Origin: a virus
Lineage: Duplodnaviria > Heunggongvirae > Uroviricota > Caudoviricetes
Virus record (IMG/VR): IMGVR_UViG_3300028549_001428
Strand: one strand, 5' to 3'
Length of the DNA stretch: 64,000 nt
Shown: piece after piece, positions 3,652 through 37,742 of the stretch
How positions within the stretch are numbered: position 1 is the first letter of the stretch
Layout of the letters: each line of letters opens with the position of its first letter
The notes under the pieces: generated by a model
The model's input: only the letters and a program-made list of their open reading frames with translations
Databases searched by the model: none
What the model was told of the DNA's origin: nothing
Position numbers and translations under genes: made by a program

Positions 3652-4443
3652 TTATGCCTCGCTCATATGCTTGTGTGGGAAGAGTTGTTTGTCAACGATT
3701 GCAAATAATTTATCCTGAATAAATCCGACAAGGATAATCAAGAATATCAATGCAAATACTTTATCAATACGACCTTGACGGGCAAATGTGTAAATCATAC
3801 CGCCAATACCAGCAGATTTGTTTACCATTTCAGCTACGATAATATATGTCCAAGAGATAGCAACCAGAACTCGAATATCATCCATCAACTTAGAAATAAC
3901 AGCAGGGATAAATACGCTAATGATTGTTTGTAGCTTACTTGCACCTAGTGTAAATGCAGTCTGTTGATATACATCAGGGACATCATTGATGCGCTGTACA
4001 ACAACAGGCAGAAGGTAAACAAGAATACCAAAGGCAAGGAATTGAATCTTCATTACATCACCAATACCAAACCATACAATGAAAAGACCTGTTACAGCAG
4101 TCAATGGAATAAAACGGAATGCGTCAATCGGCTTATTAAACATTTGACGAAAAATTGGGAATAGACCAATTATAAATCCAAGTGGAATACAGATTGCAAT
4201 TGCTTCAATGTATCCAACATAATTAAGATAAATTGAATACCCAAGATTGCGAATCATTGCATCACGGAAATGCAAATCAGGAAGAGTTCGAATTACTTCC
4301 ATTGGAGAAGGAAGAATTGTACTTGGTACAAACATAGATGCAACTAACCAAGTTAGTGCGATCAATGCTAATCCAGTAACTATCAGAATTGTATTCAACC
4401 GTTCCGATAATTGTCCACGTAGTGCAAATAGCTTGGATATCAT
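3652..4443 (-). CDS. ABC transporter permease (TauC/SsuC-like)
   Basis: Multiple TM helices, LPSPMEV motif, EAA-like loop (QQTAFTLGAS), SWTYIIVAEM. Confidence 0.93.
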   Translation of the reverse strand: MISKLFALRGQLSERLNTILIVTGLALIALTWLVASMFVPSTILPSPMEVIRTLPDLHFRDAMIRNLGYSIYLNYVGYIEAIAICIPLGFIIGLFPIFRQMFNKPIDAFRFIPLTAVTGLFIVWFGIGDVMKIQFLAFGILVYLLPVVVQRINDVPDVYQQTAFTLGASKLQTIISVFIPAVISKLMDDIRVLVAISWTYIIVAEMVNKSAGIGGMIYTFARQGRIDKVFALIFLIILVGFIQDKLFAIVDKQLFPHKHMSEA

Positions 4444-4469
4444 GTATTCTCCTTTTTAATTTTTATATA

Positions 4470-4503
4470 ATATAGAAAAAATGGTGGTTGCTGTCAACCA
4501 CCA
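4470..4503 (-). terminator. intrinsic terminator of the SBP gene, overlapping the promoter of the permease/ATPase genes
   Basis: AATGGTGGTTG-ACAG-CAACCACCATT followed by T run on the - strand; TTGACA (4497-4492) lies in the stem-loop, TATATT (4474-4469) 17 nt downstream. Confidence 0.75.
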
Positions 4504-4527
4504 TTCTTAAAGTTTTCTAAGTGTTAA

Positions 4528-6090
4528 TTACTGAGCAAGAATCTGGAAGTCAGTTCGACGATTCTTAGCATAGCAACCTGCACTAGCATCATTACAGATA
4601 GGCTTGTCTGGTCCATTACCAACCACTACGAATCGGTTTGCATCCATGCCATGGGTATTCACCAGATAGCTTACTACAGAGTTAGCACGAGCCTTGGAGA
4701 GAGCAACATTACTTGCATGATCACCAACAGCATCAGTGTTACCTTCAATACGGATACGAGCATTAGGGAATGCACGAGCATCGTCTACAAACTTAAACCC
4801 AATCAATTCCTTTGCATTCTCATCAAGTACTGCACTTCCACTTGGGAAAGTTACACGCACTGGCTTAGAAGCGATAGCACGACCCGATGCTTCCTGTACA
4901 GTAGCCTTAGTAAAGGACTTCTGAGTTTCAGCTACTACAACCGAACCACCAGTCAAATTAATCGAACCAATGAAGTCTGTATCAATAACCTTAGAGTATT
5001 CAGGAATGTTTGCCTTTTCAGCAAGACGAAGTGCTGAATAAACCTTGCTCATCTTATTATAAAGATCTTCACCCTTTACATTAGTATAACTGCGATTCAT
5101 ACCAAAGAAATCCTTGTTATCACCGTAAGTAGTCAAGCGTACATTATCAATTGCCTTTTCAGCAACAGGCTTTTCAATCTTTAGTCCAGTAGCGAGAATT
5201 TCAACTGCTTTCTGCTTTGCCGATGGATCGTTATTAATTTCATCAGAACCCTTCAACCAACCTTCAACAAACTTACGTAGTTGATCTTTCTTTGCATTGA
5301 AAACAGATTCCTTAACCATGAATCCATCAGCAATGATATGGGTTGCTTGTTTGGTATTGATAAGAATCTTAGCACCGGATACTTCGCTAATACAAGTCTC
5401 GTCATCTGGACTCCATACCACAGCGGCATCAACCTTACCAGACTTAAACGCAGTGGCTGCATCAATTGCAGAAGGCACTACAACGATCTCAACGTCCTGT
5501 ACACTCAACCCAGCCATATCAAGCATCCAAAGTAGGAATGTATGAGATGGTGTTGCTTCTGCTACAGCGATCTTCTTACCAAGCAAGTCACCTACAGAGT
5601 TGATTGCACCCTTAACTACGATAGCATCACCACCACGGCTCCAATCTGCTTGGAAAAGGAACTTAACTGGCTCACCAAAACTACCTGCTTCTGTTGGAAA
5701 TGCATCCATAGTAACCCAGAGCAAATCAATATCACCAGAACGGAAAGCATTACGAGAAGAAGCGAAATCATCCATTACATGGAAGTTTGCGCAGATACCA
5801 TAGTCAGTACGGAAACGAGACTTGGCATTATCCTGAAACCCGTTATTAAAGTACTCACCACCTGCATAACCGCCCCAAGTAACGACACCCACTTCGATAC
5901 AGGAATTCTTACCACCAGTACCAGTAGACTTGGAACCATCAGCCATCATACCCGATACATCACTTGCAGATTCACCTGCTGGAAATAGTGCTGGTCCGAA
6001 CTTCTTATATCCGAAGAACAGTGCTACACCGATGATGACCAAGATAGCGATTTTACCACCCATATTCAATTGAACCTTTGTTTGCGCCAT
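4528..6090 (-). CDS. ABC substrate-binding protein (NMT1/SsuA-like) fused to C-terminal OmpA-like peptidoglycan-binding domain
   Basis: N-terminal TM anchor; DWSRGGDAIVV and GKKIAVAEATPSH; C-terminal FPSGSAVL, IEGNTDAVG, LSKARANSV, KNRRTDF. Confidence 0.92.
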   Translation of the reverse strand: MAQTKVQLNMGGKIAILVIIGVALFFGYKKFGPALFPAGESASDVSGMMADGSKSTGTGGKNSCIEVGVVTWGGYAGGEYFNNGFQDNAKSRFRTDYGICANFHVMDDFASSRNAFRSGDIDLLWVTMDAFPTEAGSFGEPVKFLFQADWSRGGDAIVVKGAINSVGDLLGKKIAVAEATPSHTFLLWMLDMAGLSVQDVEIVVVPSAIDAATAFKSGKVDAAVVWSPDDETCISEVSGAKILINTKQATHIIADGFMVKESVFNAKKDQLRKFVEGWLKGSDEINNDPSAKQKAVEILATGLKIEKPVAEKAIDNVRLTTYGDNKDFFGMNRSYTNVKGEDLYNKMSKVYSALRLAEKANIPEYSKVIDTDFIGSINLTGGSVVVAETQKSFTKATVQEASGRAIASKPVRVTFPSGSAVLDENAKELIGFKFVDDARAFPNARIRIEGNTDAVGDHASNVALSKARANSVVSYLVNTHGMDANRFVVVGNGPDKPICNDASAGCYAKNRRTDFQILAQ

Positions 6091-8081: not shown

Positions 8082-9224
8082 TCATGCGTTAGCGTGATGA
8101 TAGGGATGTTTATTTAAAAACAATTGTTTGTACTCGGAACCGTAAGTACCGAGAACAAATCGAGCCAGTGAGTTTATTGCGCCAACTGTGTCGGCATTGT
8201 GTGAAACACCACATTTCACACAAACAAATTTATCCTGTGTTGCTCGATTCACCTTCTCACTGTGGCTACAGTCAGGACATTTGATAGAATTACCATAAGC
8301 AGGTACTCGTCTGAGGGACACACCGTGTTCCTCAGACAGCATTTGAATCCTACTGTTTATTCTACTTGTCATCCAACCAGTGAGAACAGATCGCATATTT
8401 TTATTCAGGCGACCTCTGATCTTCATCTTATTCTTGATTTTTCTGTTGTCCTCTAGGATAAGCAACTGAATCAACTCATATGGAACCTGCTTACAACTTC
8501 GATCAATATATTCCTTGATCTCTTCTCTACATGCATTCCATGCATTTGAACTTCGTTTCTTTCTCTTTAATTTCAATAAAAGTGACATCATTTCAGAACC
8601 ATAATGATTACCATTGTCATCATTGATGACATGGACTGCACCTGGATCGAGTCCAATTATATCACCGTCTGTCTTCTTTCCCTGCTCACATTCAAATGAA
8701 AACTGTATGTATTTATCTGTCAGTATAACTGAACTACATAATTTTCCCTTTGATTTCCATTTATTAAAATGTTTATTTTTCTTTAATGTAATAGCTATTG
8801 TTACATTTCGAGTTCTAGAATCAAAACAATATAACTCTAATAGTAAATCAAATTCATTCAATTCAGGATTGTGTTGAATCTTTACATTCGTCATACTCAA
8901 TAGAATACGATTTGGATCATGGGTTGGTCGTGAGTATGGAACATTCAGCGCATCAATACTTCGTTTAGTACCAAGAACTAACGCATGTGCTTCTGCAAAT
9001 GCATTCTTCTTAGCTCTCGCAGTCAACCATGATTCGCATTGATCCAGATTGCAAGCCAGAAGTAACTGTGCTTTCGTCATTCCATTTACGATATCTGATT
9101 CGTGGTGATTAATCACCCATTCAACAACACAATGCATCTCAGTAATGAACTCACGAATAGAAACCTGTTTGGTTTCCGTGATCCATTTACTAAAATAGCA
9201 CTTTGCTGAACGAGTATACTTCAT
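8082..9224 (-). mobile_element. tnpB: TnpB RNA-guided nuclease (IS200/IS605 family), copy 1
   Basis: RuvC-I IIGLDPG, RuvC-II LILED, Zn finger CPDC..CVKC, RuvC-III NADTVGA. Confidence 0.9.
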
Positions 9225-16622: not shown

Positions 16623-17765
16623 TTACGTATTAGCGTGATGATATGGGTGTTTATCTAAGAACAATTGTTTGTATTGGGAACCATAGATACCCAAAGTAAA
16701 TCTAGCCAGTGAGTTTGTTGCGCCAACGGTGTCAGCATTGTATGAAGCACCACACTTCACACAAACAAATCTATCCTGTGTTGCTCGATTCGCCTTCTCA
16801 CGGTGGCTACAGTCGGGACATGTTATAGAATTACCATAAGCAGGTACTCGTCTGAGGGACACACCGTGTTCCTCAGATAGCATTTGAATCCTACTGTTTA
16901 TTCTACCTATCATCCAACCAGTGAGAACAGAACGCATATTTTTGGTCAAGCGTCCTTTGACTTTACTCTTATTCTTGATCTTTCTGTTGTCCTCTAGGAC
17001 AAGCAACTGAATCAACTCATATGGAATCTGCTTACAGGATCGATCAATATATTCCTTAATCTCATCACGACAAGCATTCCATGCATTTGAATTTCTCTTC
17101 TTCCTTTTCAGTTTAAGAAGTAATGACATCATATTGGAACCGTAGTGATTTCCATTGTCATCGTTGATGACATGGACTGCACCAGGATCTATTCCAATTA
17201 TATCACCTTCTGTCTTCTTTCCCTGCTCACATTCAAATGAAAACTGTATGTATTTATCAGTCAATATAACAGATGAACATAACTTTCCTTTAGATTCCCA
17301 TTTATTGAAATGCTTGTTTTTCTTTAATGGAATCGCTATTGTTATTGCTCGACCACGAGAATCAAAACATCTCAAATCAACTAATAGATCAAACGATTCA
17401 AGTTCAGTATTCATTTGTATATCAACATTAGTACAACTAAGCAAAATACTACTAGGATTATGTGAGGTATGTGAATATGGCTTATTCAGAGCATCTACAC
17501 TTCGTTTGGTTCCAAGAACCAATGCATGCGCTTCTGCAAATGCATTCTTCTTAGCACGAGCAGTTAACCAAGAGTTACATTTATCTAAATTGGAAGCAAC
17601 TGTTAATTGGTATTTACTCATTCCATTTATGATATCAGATTCATATTGAACAATGACCCATTCAACAACACGATGCATTTCAGCAATAAACTCACGAATA
17701 GAAACCAACTTGACTTCCGTGATCCACTTGTTATAATAACACTTTGTTGAACGAGTATATTTCAT
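16623..17765 (-). mobile_element. tnpB: TnpB RNA-guided nuclease, copy 2 (close paralogue of 8082-9224)
   Basis: Same length (380 aa), colinear, same D-E-D RuvC triad and Zn finger. Confidence 0.9.
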
Positions 17766-30048: not shown

Positions 30049-30266
30049 TCCTCTTCCTCGTATTTAATTTCGTATGCCTAACTACTCGTTAGTGATCATT
30101 AAATCCTTATAATAAGGAAATAACCATTTAAACAGTAATATAGCAATTCAATTAATATAAGTCAAATGATTTATAAAAATAATTAATATTATTATTTCAT
30201 GATTTAAACCTTTTATATATAAAAATTTCACTTGACATATTTTATAATAGTTTCTATATTATAGAT

Positions 30267-30813: not shown

Positions 30814-31002
30814 ATGACATATAAAATGCAAGCCATCGCATCAAACGCTTCAATCAAACGGAGCAGACGAGGAAATAAAAGACGTTGGAATCGATTAAGT
30901 GAGCCATTTGCTCATATGTTTGGTGGTGCATTTAAAATAACCAAAGAATGGCTTAATAGAAAAATTAGTAGACATGAAAGAAAATACAATATGTTTGATT
31001 GA
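30814..31002 (+). CDS. small basic protein
   Basis: ORF in operon. Confidence 0.55.
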   Translation: MTYKMQAIASNASIKRSRRGNKRRWNRLSEPFAHMFGGAFKITKEWLNRKISRHERKYNMFD

Positions 31003-31048
31003 CAAATGATTTAAGTATTCCTATATTAATCAAAAAGGGAAAACATAA

Positions 31049-31633
31049 ATGGTTGATAACTTTAATTTAATCAGATCTTTGCTTACTTTTGATGGAGAAG
31101 ATGACTTCTACTACACTCAATTGATTCAGCGCAAAAAAGAAAATCCTACTAATCATGGTGATTGGGCTGTGAAAACATGGACTATTAATTCATTTGAGAA
31201 ATTTGATGAATTAAAACCTGATATCATTGCTCTAGCGATTCAGTTTAATGCACGTGCTACTATTCGTCTTAACAAACGTAGTCGCAGACAATGTGCATTG
31301 GAAACCCTTTCAGAATTGGCAAGCAACATTGCAAAGGGTGATTACACACCACCTGATAAGGTTCATTCAAGCGTGATGGGTAAGTATCATGCAGATCCAG
31401 TGAAAAAATGGTTATTGGATGCTGATGATATTGCTCCTGATGCTCCTATTGTAAGTGAAATTCTTGCTTTCATTCGGGATATTCAGCCTGTAGGCGATAA
31501 ATTGGTTTCTGTAATTCCTTCCAAGAGTGGATGTCATATTATGACTACTCCATTCAATCCAGTGCCTTTTACTAAGGCATATCCACTGATTGGTATCCAA
31601 AAAGATAACCCAACAAACCTTTATATTGTGTGA
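31049..31633 (+). CDS. conserved phage protein with AEP/prim-pol-like motifs
   Basis: WLLDAD and SKSGCH resemble AEP motifs I and II; promoter at 30999-31027. Confidence 0.55.
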   Translation: MVDNFNLIRSLLTFDGEDDFYYTQLIQRKKENPTNHGDWAVKTWTINSFEKFDELKPDIIALAIQFNARATIRLNKRSRRQCALETLSELASNIAKGDYTPPDKVHSSVMGKYHADPVKKWLLDADDIAPDAPIVSEILAFIRDIQPVGDKLVSVIPSKSGCHIMTTPFNPVPFTKAYPLIGIQKDNPTNLYIV

Positions 31634-31640
31634 GGATAAT

Positions 31641-31973
31641 ATGTCAATTCCTTTATGGCGAGATATGAGTGGTAATCTACATGATCCATCTACCATGTCA
31701 ATCGATTATATATTTAATGTTTTCCTTATGATATGGAATCATTCAGTTCCCATTCATATGAGAGCACATTGTCCCCCATATACTAGATACACAAAATTTC
31801 CTGGTTATAGCAAGAAATATTTAAAAGAAATGTTTCATATAATGCATGAAAAATTAGTTAAACAAGGTGATTTCGGTACAACTCAATTACAGCGTGGTTT
31901 GATTGCGTTTGTTGAAAAATGGTTGGAAAGCGGTGAATGTGAATTTATGAAAAAGAAGGTTAACAATGTATAA
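31641..31973 (+). CDS. hypothetical protein
   Basis: Start refined after SD GAGGA. Confidence 0.65.
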   Translation: MSIPLWRDMSGNLHDPSTMSIDYIFNVFLMIWNHSVPIHMRAHCPPYTRYTKFPGYSKKYLKEMFHIMHEKLVKQGDFGTTQLQRGLIAFVEKWLESGECEFMKKKVNNV

Positions 31974-32112
31974 AATAATACGACTTACAACAAACACACC
32001 TGGTACAGATGAATTACAGAAAGCATTGAATGATGGATACTCTATAGTCAATGTTAATGAGACACATTCTGCTGATTTTGGCTTCATTATTTATGTATTG
32101 AAGCGAGGATAA
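31966..32112 (+). CDS. 48-aa protein (not in ORF track)
   Basis: MYKIIRLTT...YVLKRG, coupled on both sides. Confidence 0.55.
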   Translation: MYKIIRLTTNTPGTDELQKALNDGYSIVNVNETHSADFGFIIYVLKRG

Positions 32113-32114
32113 TA

Positions 32115-32504
32115 ATGACTCCTGAAGAATATGTTGCAATCCGTTTGCGTAATGGATATATTACTGAAAATTGTATTATTGATAATGATACTGGGTTGGG
32201 TAGGTACAAAAGTCCTAACCCATATGTAAAAATGCGATTCCCAAACGACCTTGATTACATTTATCGTTGTGGTAATACAGCTACTATGGAAGAATTTTGG
32301 AACAATGCAAAAACACAGAAAGATCTATTGTGGGCAATTCGTGGATTAGGTGGAGAGTATTACAAATTAGCTGATTCAATTTGGTCTGATTTATGTTCTA
32401 CATTTGGAATTAATAATTCTAGTAAGATAACACCAGAAGATGCATTTTCTTATGCTCAGTGCGTAAGAATGCGAGTTGGAAAAAATCCATTCAAGGAAAT
32501 ATAA
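32115..32504 (+). CDS. hypothetical protein (129 aa)
   Basis: SD GAGGA. Confidence 0.7.
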   Translation: MTPEEYVAIRLRNGYITENCIIDNDTGLGRYKSPNPYVKMRFPNDLDYIYRCGNTATMEEFWNNAKTQKDLLWAIRGLGGEYYKLADSIWSDLCSTFGINNSSKITPEDAFSYAQCVRMRVGKNPFKEI

Positions 32505-32506
32505 TT

Positions 32507-33856
32507 ATGGGATGTTTTGATTCAGTATGTTCATTAAGTAAACTACCAATTCATTATGGTGATGATATTGTTGCATTTTATGTATGCAGTGGTTCGGTGA
32601 ATAGTTTTTCACCAGAATACAGGTGGTATCAAATGGGATTTCCATTATTCGGTAAATATAATGATTATGGTGATATAGAAGAATATGATACATCACATAT
32701 CAATTATAATATACTTGAAAATACAGTGAATAAACGGCAGAAATATATTAAGCCAATGGAATGCTGTCAATATAAAGATACAGAACCATCTTTAATTGAT
32801 ATGTTCATGAAAAATGTATCTAGTGGTGAACAGATGTTGCCTTCTATATCAGGTGAAAATGGTGAACTTGAAGAATCCGAGCTTACAAAAGGAATGATGA
32901 AGATAAAAACTCATTCAGGTAATGCAGTACATCTTGTATTAATTCATCGTAAAGTATATGATTATGTAGTTGAATTTGGAAAATCTATGTTAACAAAATC
33001 GGTTAATGCTGATTCTATAAATGATTATTTCAAACATAGAAATATGTGGTCAAAGGATAGTAGTCGAGTTATTAGAATTAATCATGATATGTTAATTAAT
33101 GATATTAATATATCATCAATAGATAATATTGAAGAAATTGACTATGATAATAGTTTATCTCATATTCACAGATTTCTAAAATGTCGTCAAAATGATTGTT
33201 TTCCGTCTGTATGTATGTATACCAACCAGGTTATTAATGAAATGTATTCGACAAAAGCAGATGAATTATCATTTGAGCATCCATTAATTCAATCGGTTCT
33301 TGATTATAAATTTTTTAGAACCGCTAGAATAGCATTAAATCTTGAATTGGTTCCTCATTTTAGCTATGCTAGTAACCAACATCGAGACAATCATGATGTA
33401 AGAGGAATACAAACATTCCATACACAGATGGCTGAGATTGCAGATACATTAATTAGAGATGATGAAGAAGAGTACGAGGATGATATGAGCTTTTTCAAGA
33501 CGAAACTAAAAGAACCTACAATTTCTGACTATTATCGGATTGAGCGTAAGGTAACAGACCTAGTTACACAGTCCCTAAAAATGCAGAAATCAAAAAATAT
33601 ATTGGATAATAAACCGGACATATATTGGCTGGTATCGTATGCGTATAGTGCCTCACCGTTTATGGAAGTTCATGCGGGGAATCTGATAGATGCTATCACA
33701 TGGTTCATTACCCTACAACCAAAGTGCGTACCTATTGCGTCATGGGAAATATCTGAGGAACAGTATGTGACTATCTCGGTGAAAAATGGGATTATATCTC
33801 AAATGAAAATTGAAGGATACAAACCAACACACTTAATTAACCAAGGCGATGCCTAA
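32507..33856 (+). CDS. phage hypothetical (MGCFD start), apparently fused in frame to a C-terminal cassette ORF starting at 33485
   Basis: Acidic DDEEEYEDD, then SD GAGGA plus in-frame ATG at 33485; stop lies in the attC-like R'' box. Confidence 0.7.
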   Translation: MGCFDSVCSLSKLPIHYGDDIVAFYVCSGSVNSFSPEYRWYQMGFPLFGKYNDYGDIEEYDTSHINYNILENTVNKRQKYIKPMECCQYKDTEPSLIDMFMKNVSSGEQMLPSISGENGELEESELTKGMMKIKTHSGNAVHLVLIHRKVYDYVVEFGKSMLTKSVNADSINDYFKHRNMWSKDSSRVIRINHDMLINDINISSIDNIEEIDYDNSLSHIHRFLKCRQNDCFPSVCMYTNQVINEMYSTKADELSFEHPLIQSVLDYKFFRTARIALNLELVPHFSYASNQHRDNHDVRGIQTFHTQMAEIADTLIRDDEEEYEDDMSFFKTKLKEPTISDYYRIERKVTDLVTQSLKMQKSKNILDNKPDIYWLVSYAYSASPFMEVHAGNLIDAITWFITLQPKCVPIASWEISEEQYVTISVKNGIISQMKIEGYKPTHLINQGDA

Positions 33857-33902
33857 CAGACGGTGTAACCGACACTTCGTGCGGTTAACCTAGACGTTAG
33901 GC
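33851..33902 (+). other. attC-like integron cassette recombination site 1
   Basis: R'' GCCTAAC, L'' GGT[G]TAAC, CG[A]CAC-TTC-GTG, L' GTTAACC, R' GTTAGGC; two extrahelical bases. Confidence 0.85.
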
Positions 33903-33926
33903 ATACAAAATTAAGGAAACAATAAA

Positions 33927-34244
33927 ATGACACCTAGAGCAAAAACAGCGGAAGAAGTAAGAACCGAATTCCTTAAAAAGGTACAGAGTCTCGCCCAGTA
34001 TTGGGGAAATGTAGAAGGAAAGACTGATGTAGAAAAATGTGAGGGATTAGCATTTTCGATCCTAAACATTTTTGACGGAACTTCAGCCGACCTACCAGCA
34101 ATGGACATCTCTCTAGCACCACACGAGAGCGATAAGGATTATTGCATTGATAATGGTGAAAACTGGTATGAGCCGGGAATGATTATCAACAACTGCACTC
34201 TACATGAATCATTTTACAAAATAACGATGCCTAACAAACGGTGA
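33927..34244 (+). CDS. cassette ORF 2, hypothetical (105 aa)
   Basis: Lies between attC1 and attC2; SD AAGGA. Confidence 0.8.
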   Translation: MTPRAKTAEEVRTEFLKKVQSLAQYWGNVEGKTDVEKCEGLAFSILNIFDGTSADLPAMDISLAPHESDKDYCIDNGENWYEPGMIINNCTLHESFYKITMPNKR

Positions 34245-34286
34245 AGCCGATCCGCAGGAAACGGACGGCTTACCTAAGCGTTAGGC
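34229..34286 (+). other. attC-like site 2
   Basis: GCCTAAC-AAAC-GGT[G]AAGCCG[A]TCCG-CAGGAAA-CGGACGGCTTACC-TAAGC-GTTAGGC, 58 bp. Confidence 0.9.
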
Positions 34287-34319
34287 ACACAACCTCCGGT
34301 TGGATTGAGGAGTAAACAA

Positions 34320-34691
34320 ATGACGCATGATACCAACAAGAATGCGGGTCACTTACTTGGTAAGATGGTCTACCACAGAGATTTATACAAACATTGCGAA
34401 CAGTTCAAGGTAACTGGCGTAACGCTAGATTCTATTGAGCTAGAGGGCGATTACTCTGGAGGAACTCACCGGATAATCCAAAAGCAGTGGAATCCATTAA
34501 AAGGAACCTCGGTGGTGTATAACCACGCATACAAAGAGGAATGTCGAAAAAAAGCATTGACTATACAGGCATTAGCAATACCTGTTGAGTGTGCGGAAAA
34601 GAGAAGCAACACCGAAGAAGCCATGATCGAGCTATTAAGTATGGTGCTGGTTCTTACAAACGATGTAGCAATGAATCCAGAATATACCTAA
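34320..34691 (+). CDS. cassette ORF 3, hypothetical (123 aa)
   Basis: SD GAGGAG; stop TAA inside ACCTAAC. Confidence 0.8.
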   Translation: MTHDTNKNAGHLLGKMVYHRDLYKHCEQFKVTGVTLDSIELEGDYSGGTHRIIQKQWNPLKGTSVVYNHAYKEECRKKALTIQALAIPVECAEKRSNTEEAMIELLSMVLVLTNDVAMNPEYT

Positions 34692-34743
34692 CAAATGATA
34701 ATTGCGATATAACTGGACATAATCAATATAATCAAAGCGAGAC
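34686..34743 (+). other. degenerate attC-like site 3
   Basis: ACCTAAC-AAAT-GATAATTG...CAATATAATC-AAAGC-G--AGAC (R' lacks TT). Confidence 0.55.
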
Positions 34744-34746
34744 ATT

Positions 34747-35013
34747 ATGAAATTTTCATTATTAAAACAAATCGTGACAGATCATGCAAAAGAACGAAAA
34801 GAGAATGCTGGGTTCTCTGGTGCTTGGGATGATGGTGGTTGTCAATCCATTTTAAATAAAATGGATTCGTACCAACAAAAAATTGTAATTGAAATGGATT
34901 TGCGTCCATCCGAATTAGGTAAACTCAATGAGCGTGAGGTCGGAGAACCTAATGAGTTATCAGATATAATCAACAACTACAAAATTAAATTAGCAAATAA
35001 CATAAAACTGTGA
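34747..35013 (+). CDS. cassette ORF 4, hypothetical (88 aa)
   Basis: Followed immediately by residual R'' ACCTAAC at 35013-35019. Confidence 0.7.
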   Translation: MKFSLLKQIVTDHAKERKENAGFSGAWDDGGCQSILNKMDSYQQKIVIEMDLRPSELGKLNEREVGEPNELSDIINNYKIKLANNIKL

Positions 35014-35155
35014 CCTAACGATTCACCAGAGTTGATATAATATGAAATAACTAGAACATTCATATATAAACATGAAATTTTTACAAAGGAATTTAATTCA
35101 CGCATTCCTTTTTGTGTTTTTATAAACTATAAGCATAAAAATAAATGGATTTATT

Positions 35156-36217
35156 ATGAATCAAGAAGAAAAATTTTATAGTTATTTAACTAAATTATCC
35201 GAGCAGACAAAAAACCCAATAGTTGAAAGTATAATTAAAGGATTTACTGTATTATCTGGGTATTCCCCAATAGTTGAGAATGAAGATCAGGCAACTAACG
35301 ATACAAACACAGAAACTATAGATACATCAAATGCTGAAAATACTATGTCTGATGATATATCAACTGGGTCAGTAATGGAATCCGATGAACAAGCAACAGA
35401 GCCAACCGAAGCAGTTTCCGAACCAACCGAAATAGTAAAATCAGAGACTGTAGCCCCTGAGTTATTAGATAAAGTAACAAAATTATGTAATGAAGTACTA
35501 AGTCTTTACAAACATTTAGCTGGAACGGATTTTGTTAAAGAAGAAATTAAGCAAGATGATACTAAATCCGAAGAATCACCAAATACAGATACAGTTAAAG
35601 AACCCATCATGGAAGAAGTTAACTTAGGACAGCGTAAAGCAACAGGTGACTATACAGGAACTGATTACTCTAAAGCATTTGATAGTTTATTTACATTTTT
35701 AAATGACACAGAAAAACATATTGAATCTATGTATAGAATAAATAAAGTTGATTCACAAGATCAAATTTTAGCACAAACTATTCCACATATCGATAACATA
35801 TTAAATACATATAAAGCTGAATTCCAACAAATGGAAGAACAACACATGGATAACATGATCCCTGTAATCCGAACAACAATTTCAGCATCTGCTACAAAAT
35901 GGATTCAAGTATTGAAAAAATTTGATATTAAATTAAACCAACAACATGAAATTCCTGATTATTATGGTAGATATGTTGTTGCTAAATTTATTAATGATGT
36001 AGTAACACCAGCCATAGATTATAGCGAAATGATCCGTGGTCAGATGAGTGTAAATGATAATAAATTACAGGTAAATGTTAAAGCGATTATGGATAAAATT
36101 TCAGCATTAGTTCAAACATTTGATGCTGATGTCGAATCTGATATAAAGGCAAAAACAGGTGGAAAGGCTTATACTAAGGGTGCTACCCAAGCACAACCTC
36201 AAGCAGTTTCTGCTTAA
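35156..36217 (+). CDS. acidic late protein, possible internal head protein
   Basis: TATAAACTAT at 35121; Glu/Thr/Pro-rich linker; several hydrophobic-x-E sites (PIVE, SVME, PIME). Confidence 0.7.
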   Translation: MNQEEKFYSYLTKLSEQTKNPIVESIIKGFTVLSGYSPIVENEDQATNDTNTETIDTSNAENTMSDDISTGSVMESDEQATEPTEAVSEPTEIVKSETVAPELLDKVTKLCNEVLSLYKHLAGTDFVKEEIKQDDTKSEESPNTDTVKEPIMEEVNLGQRKATGDYTGTDYSKAFDSLFTFLNDTEKHIESMYRINKVDSQDQILAQTIPHIDNILNTYKAEFQQMEEQHMDNMIPVIRTTISASATKWIQVLKKFDIKLNQQHEIPDYYGRYVVAKFINDVVTPAIDYSEMIRGQMSVNDNKLQVNVKAIMDKISALVQTFDADVESDIKAKTGGKAYTKGATQAQPQAVSA

Positions 36218-36231
36218 TATGTAGTATTTAC

Positions 36232-36257
36232 GACTCAGAAAAATATTTTTCTGAGTC
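36232..36257. terminator. perfect 26-bp palindrome (terminator or IS left-end hairpin)
   Basis: GACTCAGAAAAATATTTTTCTGAGTC. Confidence 0.6.
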
Positions 36258-36305
36258 ATTTTTATAAACTATATGTAAAGCATATACAACACACAGGAAT
36301 ATAAA

Positions 36306-36466: not shown

Positions 36467-37742
36467 ATGTTAATGGGTCAAAAGATATTGTTGTATCCAA
36501 CGCCTGAACAGGCGTTGGTTTTTAACAAGTCTTTTGGCGTATCCCGATATGCCTATAATTGGGCATTAAGTAAATGGAAAGAACGGAAATCACTTGGTGT
36601 AGCCAAAGTGACTGAAGAAAGAATGGAATAAATGTAAGCCAGAATGGGTTTATGATTGTCCAAAGGACGCTAATCAACAACCATTTGCTGATTTATCCAC
36701 TGCATTAAAGAATTATTTCACATCAAAGAAAGCAGGGAATAAGCATTTTAAGTTTCCAAGAAAGAAGAAGCGAGGAAAATGTAGAGATTCTTTCTATGTA
36801 TCAAATGATAGAGCACATATAACTAACAACCATATTAAATTACCACTTGTTGGTAGAGTTCGTTTAGCCGAAGGCTTGAGATTCAAGAAAAACCAAACAA
36901 GAATTTTATCATATACTATTTCTAGAACTACTGATAAGTATTATGTATCAATAAATTATGAAATACCTGATGATTTGAGTGCAATCCAAAGTGGATCAGG
37001 GATGGTGGGTATTGATTTAGGCTTAAAGACCTTTGCTGTAGAGAGTAATGGACACGAAGAACAATCACCAAGACCACTAAAGAAGCACCAACAAAAGCTG
37101 GTGCGTTTACAAAAGAAATTATCTCGTGCTTCCAAAGGAAGCATCAGACGAAATAAAACAAAAATGAAACTAGCAAAACAACATGCTAGAATATCGAATA
37201 TTCGAAAAGATCATTTACATAAATATTCACGAAAAATAGTGAACGAAAATGCGGTCATCGTTTTCGAAGATTTGAATATACGAGGAATGCTTAAAAACCA
37301 CAAGCTGGCTCGTTCAATATCTGATTCTTCGTGGAGTGAATTGGTCAGAATGACCGATTACAAATCCAAACGATCAGGTTCTATAGTCTTAAAAGCTAAT
37401 AGGTTCTTTCCTTCATCTAAATTATGTTCACAATGTGGTGCGTTAAAGCACCACATTGGACTTGATGAAAGAGAGTATATATGTGAAGAATGTGGCTCGG
37501 TCATGGATCGAGATCACAATGCGTCAATTAACATTCTAGCCTATGGCTTAACACAATTAATACCCAGTGCCTCTGGGAAATTTACGTCCGTGAAGATTGT
37601 AGCTCTGTGTCAGAAAGCAATTTCTGACATAACTTCGGTCAATGAAACGTTCCTTAGATCAGAAAATGGTCAATGGAACAGTGAGGTTCTTGTAGCCTCA
37701 CTGAGAAATCAAGTTGAATTGTCTTTGACAATTCAACCATAA
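36467..37742 (+). pseudogene. tnpB: TnpB (IS605/IS1341-type) with a frameshift at about 36608-36629
   Basis: N-terminal LLYPTPEQ..FGVSRYAYNWAL in one frame; LKKEWN..GIDLG..IVFEDL..CSQC..CEEC..DRDHNA in another. Confidence 0.88.
37679..37736 (+). ncRNA. 3' part of TnpB omega/reRNA and IS right end
   Basis: Hairpins CAGTGAGG..CCTCACTG and TTGAATTGTC-TTT-GACAATTCAA, ending in TCAA. Confidence 0.7.

Follow-up and report, generated by a model that had tools for sequence, protein, structure and literature searches.

We analyzed a 64,000-nucleotide (nt) window of a Caudoviricetes phage known from sequence alone (IMG/VR record IMGVR_UViG_3300028549_001428), in which an earlier note had described a row of four integron-like gene cassettes between positions 33485 and 35019. 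The window, by which we mean this whole stretch, is AT-rich phage DNA (G+C ~33%), and its genes include an RNA ligase, HNH endonucleases, and several TnpB proteins. As the protein encoded by one of the cassettes, cassette B, is also on record in a 365,647-bp contig, the genome is that of a megaphage. Two imperfect palindromes, at 33851-33902 and 34229-34286, lie in a plus-strand operon (30999-36257) that has promoter-like sites at its front, at 30232 and at 30999, and is closed by terminators beyond 36217; around them are an open reading frame (ORF) fused to a phage gene, a complete small cassette, and a third small ORF preceded by a cassette-type leader. Strong promoter-like sites stand back to back (30137-30260 and 30999-31027; TTGACA-17-TATATT, 11/12) in the divergent intergenic region that parts minus-strand genes from the plus-strand operon carrying the palindromes.

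The attC sites of integron cassettes are bounded by RYYYAAC and GTTRRRY boxes and have an unpaired central spacer of ~5-6 nt per arm and a short loop of variable sequence. Their bottom strand has two or three extrahelical bases, of which the outermost two are required to be separated by 6 bp, the distal one being a conserved T and the proximal one usually a G (Nivina, 2016; PMC5027507). Both palindromes have mutually complementary R'' (5'-RYYYAAC) and R' (5'-GTTRRRY) boxes, which are conserved across 16 relatives, and the paired L boxes and two extrahelical bases that the earlier note described; they lie at exactly the positions it gave. Site 1 (33851-33902, plus strand, 52 nt) runs from R'' GCCTAAC to R' GTTAGGC, and the TAA stop of the preceding reading frame, ORF1, sits within its R'' box. 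Site 2 (34229-34286, plus strand, 58 nt) starts 378 nt after the start of site 1, and both are co-oriented with the ORFs. Imperfect palindromes of the form GCCTAAC...GTTAGGC occur twice in the window, with none expected by chance. When folded as single-stranded DNA and compared with shuffles, both strands of both sites gave z-scores of -4.1 to -5.6, the bottom strand folding slightly better than the top. The bottom strand of site 2 reads as a 7-bp R box, a spacer of 5/4 nt, 3 bp, a bulged C, 6 bp, a bulged T, and a 5-bp stem with its loop. The L''/L' stem, which covaries, is set off from the R boxes by an unpaired spacer (5 + 4 nt on the bottom strand), and the two bottom-strand bulges are exactly 6 bp apart, the distal one being a T. 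The geometry of the phage sites is therefore nearly canonical, with two departures that are weighed below.

The earlier note had likened the palindromes to aadA-type attC and proposed a scan with an attC covariance model. We built such a model, R1, from four genuine 60-nt class 1 attC sites (aadA1, aadA2, psp, and qacH) that lie beside intI1 in phage P1 isolate MH445380; it was limited to these four because 13 attC sites of mixed class 1 and Shewanella origin, aligned with MAFFT, gave too ragged an alignment for a model. In an unfiltered scan of the 64 kb, R1 matched both palindromes end to end and in the orientation of the ORFs, site 2 with 35.9 bits (E 1.7e-8) and site 1 with 31.0 bits (E 6.4e-7), bearing out the likeness. 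All other matches had E-values of at least 0.001; those below 1 were the reverse strands of sites 1 and 2, and the next match elsewhere had an E-value of 1.3. Relatives of the sites, gathered by pattern scans of viral and metagenome contigs, yielded an alignment (A4) of 16 short phage and metagenome sites, from which we made a second model, R2. In A4 the R boxes are conserved in sequence and the inner stem in structure, with 10 of the 13 inner-stem pairs changed on both sides and 95.3% of cells paired, compared to 25-46% with the partners slid. The phage-family model gives site 1 65.6 bits and site 2 79.6 bits. R2 also finds the class 1 attC sites of aadA1, aadA2, qacH, psp, dfrA, and cmlA at their cassette boundaries (E 1.8e-9 to 0.011), and detects attC sites upstream of intI in IMG/VR contigs. 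As R1 finds the phage sites and R2 finds class 1 attC, recognition is reciprocal. The likeness is invisible to plain sequence search, since a plasmid BLAST with site 2 returned only chance matches of 20-32 nt; a simple regular-expression scan, in turn, missed the attC sites of Vibrio and Shewanella because their R boxes do not conform to RYYYAAC. Both palindromes are integron-type attC sites in sequence and in structure.

The four small ORFs had been read as free cassette genes, each ending at or in an RCCTAAC box. The first of them, ORF1 (33485-33856, plus strand; 123 amino acids (aa) from an internal ATG with GAGGA 4 nt upstream), is the C-terminal third of a 449-aa ORF (32507-33856, plus strand), in which a phage backbone gene (approximately residues 1-322, of a family of 319-330-aa proteins) is fused in frame to ORF1, the coding part of cassette A. 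A match to phrog_5960 spans residues 17-354 of the longer reading frame. The homologues of the 449-aa ORF are 319-330 aa long and cover ~70% of the query, its first part only; the nearest of these, P0089, shares 85% identity with the query as far as residue 319 and ends eight residues further on, where a separate, overlapping gene follows. L058, an independent contig, has the same 449-aa ORF call, and a search of viral contigs with the 465-aa frame (32459-33853) gave no relative. ORF1 also has stand-alone homologues, of 120 aa (78% identical) and 119 aa (69% identical). In contig L158, an ORF1 homologue retains 81% DNA identity through the R'' box and is flanked by two collapsed attC sites and by other array neighbours; the upstream collapsed site corresponds to site 1 of the window minus the stretch between two AGACG repeats. 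The stand-alone homologues and the L158 array thus establish cassette A as a real, mobile cassette that is fused here to a backbone gene and exists elsewhere as a separate unit.

Cassette B (33897-34280, plus strand, 384 nt) is the only complete cassette in the window. It extends from the TT of the site 1 R' box to the G of the site 2 R' box, boundaries that follow from the crossover between G and TT in integron recombination (PMC9892861, PMC5027507). Its 105-aa ORF (33927-34244) stops at a TGA (34242-34244) inside the L'' box of site 2, and not at the TAA of R'', so this second ORF does not end as had been described. We found no strong promoter between the two palindromes, in agreement with the earlier note, which saw no promoter-like site between the cassettes. 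The cargo had been judged phage-like, and this stands: the cassette B protein matches phrog_29367 and has 88 homologues of ~100 aa, all on metagenomic contigs, of which the six contexts that we fetched are phage-like. Homologues of ORF1 and ORF3 are likewise found on metagenomic phage-like contigs. A search for homologues with attC flanks had been proposed as a check; in addition to the ORF1 homologue of L158, it returned contig L059, in which a 79%-identical cassette B homologue is followed by a decayed attC made up of point-mutated remnants.

Directly 3' of the site 2 R' box, ahead of ORF3 (34320-34691, plus strand, 123 aa), is a conserved cassette leader that ends in a Shine-Dalgarno sequence (34287-34312, plus strand). 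The 26-nt leader pattern ACACAACCTYCGGTTGGATYGAGGAG, drawn from the leaders of other cassettes, fits 34287-34312 with zero mismatches, where no such match is expected, and near-identical leaders follow R' in at least seven cassettes with unrelated ORFs (L050, L053, L051, L046, L161, and L163). Two further leader classes recur, ATACRAAA..AGGA and TAATGCGAGGAA. Folded as RNA, the leader shows no significant structure. That different cassettes have such 5' modules in common may be relevant to the way in which cassettes arise.

Downstream of ORF3 there is no demonstrable attC. Its nearest homologue, 82% identical and carried by contig L160, is an ordinary gene at the end of an operon, followed by a terminator and without an attC, so it is the leader that argues for a third cassette. 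ORF3 may belong to a third cassette that has lost its attC by decay, or else the phage backbone may resume with it after the array. The two ACCTAAC boxes that were earlier taken as cassette ends, at 34686 and 35013, have no R' partner, no fold, and no match with R1 or R2. The first could be the left half of a decayed attC (34686-34707, plus strand), as 10 of the 16 bases after ACCTAAC are the same as in site 2. In a left-half weight matrix built without the window's own sites it scores 13.4 bits, third on the plus strand; maxima in shuffled windows have a mean of 10.9 and reach 16.8, so the score is not significant, and a similar one occurs at an irrelevant place. The box at 35013 does not score in this matrix, and RCCTAAC is not enriched in the window (10 observed, 7.65 expected). 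A fourth cassette is unsupported. What stands of the row of four is one complete cassette and one cassette ORF fused to a backbone gene, followed by the leader of ORF3.

Two side observations concern the genes at this end of the operon. Residues 13-65 of ORF3 form a module of ~50 aa that many small proteins (141 cluster representatives) have at one end, N- or C-terminal, and belongs to no Pfam or PHROG family. Directly after the cassette region, a 353-aa ORF (35156-36217) includes an acidic low-complexity part, has no Pfam or PHROG match, and is followed by two terminator-like hairpins.

Arrays of two to six sites of the same attC subfamily were found in eight viral contigs and several metagenome contigs, and this homogeneous subfamily is shared by numerous phage-like contigs; DNA searches of INPHARED phages with 32400-36300, for close and for distant matches, gave none. 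Exchange of entire cassettes has taken place within the subfamily, the breakpoints falling at the R' box, the kind of cassette-precise polymorphism among relatives that the earlier note had suggested looking for. A 491-nt cassette present in both L047 and L048 is 99.6% identical from one R' box to the next, with unrelated DNA outside it, and L050 and L052 part directly after R'. In L041, just one cassette is present, with an isolated GTTAGGC to the left and an attC with a hybrid R' (GTTATGA) to the right, the layout expected from insertion of a cassette into a secondary GTT site. Insertion outside att sites has been reported for IntI (bioRxiv 10.1101/2022.09.11.507474). Collapsed attC sites, in which R'' and R' are kept and the inner hairpin is deleted, flank cassettes at L158 761-787, 1115-1132, and 1511-1530, at L031 1415-1446, and at L040 9828-9858, and deletion of the inner hairpin appears to be a common route of decay in the subfamily.

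The hallmarks of a complete integron, namely intI, an adjacent attI, and Pc, are not found at this locus, and the array lies within a phage operon. It is a cluster of at least two close attC sites with no integrase nearby (none within ~30 kb on either side), and the structure is therefore a CALIN, a cluster of attC sites lacking an integrase. Overall, we consider it likely that genuine integron-type attC sites here mark a short CALIN of promoterless cassettes in an early-type operon of a ~365-kb phage, served by an integrase in trans. In this model, the bottom strand would fold into the hairpin during a single-stranded phase of phage replication or entry, and an IntI-type tyrosine recombinase, supplied in trans by the host or by the rest of the phage genome, would cut R' between G and TT. 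Recombination between two attC sites would then excise cassettes as circles, for which either a different attC or a secondary GTT site could serve as the point of insertion.

Several observations weigh against this model. In the sites themselves, the proximal bulge is a C, rather than a G, in all subfamily members inspected, and the central spacer lacks one base relative to the usual 5-6; these are the two departures from canonical geometry. At 58 nt, site 2 falls within the published length range of 57-141 nt, and site 1, at 52 nt, is slightly below it. The other points concern the enzyme. The earlier note had seen no tyrosine recombinase in the 64 kb, and our profile search, with a profile made from three IntI proteins and a P2-type integrase, was likewise empty, both in the window and in every fetched array locus. 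Pfam Phage_integrase matched none of the eight array-bearing viral contigs, including a 31-kb one with terminal repeats. As neither the window nor the array contigs hold an integrase, the enzyme is hypothetical, and that it is supplied in trans is our inference; the analysis covered ~64 kb of the ~365-kb genome. None of the 73 IntI loci from IMG/VR carries this attC subfamily, their best sites scoring 25-37 bits against 42-80 for members. Among 185,579 bacterial and archaeal species genomes, the exact subfamily pattern matched three, all metagenome-assembled (two Akkermansiaceae and one Saccharibacteria), and R2 confirmed none of the three. Finally, L058, the only other contig that covers the locus, has the same gene layout and identical scores at both attC sites, and so offers no polymorphism.

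Some of these points would be accounted for if the phage lineage had a dedicated recombinase other than IntI, such as a small Xer-like enzyme, the cassette system then being a parallel one that belongs to the phages. In favor of this, the homogeneous attC subfamily has so far been found on phage-like contigs only and not in bacterial species genomes, and the C bulge and shorter spacer set it apart. However, no tyrosine recombinase was found in the eight array-bearing viral contigs (one with terminal repeats), the window, or the fetched loci. Moreover, the good scores obtained with a pure class 1 model imply that a standard IntI should accept the sites. We therefore think a dedicated recombinase unlikely.

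A passive origin, in which a fragment of a bacterial integron was acquired by illegitimate recombination and is now inert in the phage, would agree with the presence of just two intact sites and with the signs of decay (a collapsed site, the fused ORF, and a possible half-site), and capture routes of this sort are discussed by Qi et al. (PMC9892861). It accords poorly with what surrounds and resembles the array: the cargo proteins have PHROG matches and homologues on metagenomic contigs that are phage-like where fetched, many phage contigs whose cassettes differ have this attC subfamily and these leaders too, cassettes have been swapped at R' between such contigs, and we found no bacterial genome with this subfamily. 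We regard an inert bacterial fragment as quite improbable. That the hairpins act as RNA, as a terminator, processing site, or translational regulator, and resemble attC by chance is very improbable, for although they are intergenic, operon-oriented, and conserved in structure with covariation, and attC sites are thought to be weak terminators (PMC9892861), both sites lack a following T-run and a terminator-like call, the sequence of the outer 7-bp boxes is kept as RYYYAAC/GTTRRRY, recognition is reciprocal with models of genuine attC, and breakpoints fall exactly at R'.

An integron-type CALIN, the structure we favor, is not new to phages. Among 10,705 phage genomes, Qi et al. (Qi, Rajabal, Ghaly, Tetu, and Gillings; Front Microbiol, 2023; PMC9892861) found 17 CALINs and three complete integrons; CALINs occurred in temperate and virulent phages, and IntI1 recombined five of six tested attC sites of virulent phages with the efficiency of attC-aadA7. 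The novelty that the earlier note had seen in the array is thus superseded, and the locus is a well-supported new example and not a new kind of system. Like the published phage CALINs, it has at least two co-oriented attC sites with small ORFs between them, canonical cassette direction, and no adjacent intI, and a related array, L053, shares with them a DNA methyltransferase cassette. Unlike them, it lies in an uncultivated megaphage of ~365 kb, and its attC sites belong to a homogeneous subfamily found across many contigs of uncultivated phages, in which cassette leaders are conserved and collapsed sites are frequent. Our literature search found no paper that ties attC sites to jumbo phages specifically. 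In L053, cassettes of the same attC subfamily (4156-5082 and 5302-6048) code for a radical-SAM protein and for an N6/N4 DNA methyltransferase, and the methyltransferase agrees with the anti-restriction cargo known from phage CALINs.

With the class 1 aadA-type attC sites (aadA1, aadA2, and aadA7), which are IntI1 substrates, the phage sites share the R box consensus and the order of 3 bp, bulge, 6 bp, and bulged T, and site 2 has the same 6-bp L stem, AAGCCG/CGGCTT; they are also similar in length (52-58 nt compared to 60 nt). They differ in the base of the proximal bulge and by the one base missing from each spacer arm. Unlike class 1 integrons, the phage locus has no resistance cargo, intI1, or attI1. 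The arrays also resemble sedentary chromosomal integrons of the Vibrio and Shewanella types in having many cassettes of unknown function and one homogeneous attC type, and in being reassorted between genomes. Sedentary arrays, including fragments carried by Vibrio anguillarum and Shewanella phages, have intI and attI adjacent and attC sites of ~75-135 nt in two records, whereas the arrays described here have short sites, show no integrase or attI, and are carried by phage contigs.

Outside the operon, a collapsed attC lies on the minus strand (30076-30094), consisting of an R''-like box, 5 nt, and R' GTTAGGC; it is followed by an exact ATACGAAA leader and a 95-aa ORF (30048-29761). The only exact copies of the 15-mer GTTAGGCATACRAAA in the window are found by this collapsed site and after attC site 1. 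At gathering thresholds, Rfam has no match in the window.

The window also has two intact 380-aa TnpB-like genes (8085-9224 and 16626-17765, both minus strand). A third TnpB, at 36467-37742 on the plus strand, is apparently in pieces, with a separate HTH_OrfB_IS605 ORF and a part of 288 aa whose profile match is confined to the final two thirds. In a related contig (G005; L030 4408-5810), a TnpB element with 71-82% DNA identity sits directly 3' of the last attC of a five-site array. With TnpB genes nearby, we considered whether the palindromes could be IS200/IS605 or repetitive extragenic palindrome (REP)-type hairpins, and rejected this: no GCCTAAC site lies by the TnpB copies at 8085-9224 and 16626-17765, and the hairpins match attC models.

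Taken alone, the window holds modest biology, with two intact sites and signs of decay. As the array is small and decaying, with a fused ORF, a site collapsed to R''-R', and a possible half-site, the cluster more probably records earlier capture events than a platform on which cassettes are actively shuffled. It nonetheless adds a case, verified with care, in which a very large phage carries integron cassettes, and it suggests that part at least of the accessory-gene mosaic of megaphages is built by site-specific cassette exchange, beside illegitimate and homologous recombination. New relative to the published work is that one attC type extends across many contigs of uncultivated phages, where it is accompanied by standard leaders, by collapsed sites, and by reassortment that is exact to the cassette. 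A tentative extension, which we hold to be possible though doubtful, is that uncultivated phages, megaphages among them, keep a cassette pool of their own, with a private, homogeneous attC subfamily, standard 5' leaders, and phage-type cargo. If so, this would parallel the species-specific attC sites of sedentary chromosomal integrons, and cassettes would be made and exchanged within the phage world by an integrase that is either the IntI of a host from an unsampled lineage or of phage origin. The wider family could help to explain how cassettes are made, and to find the integrase that serves phage-borne arrays.

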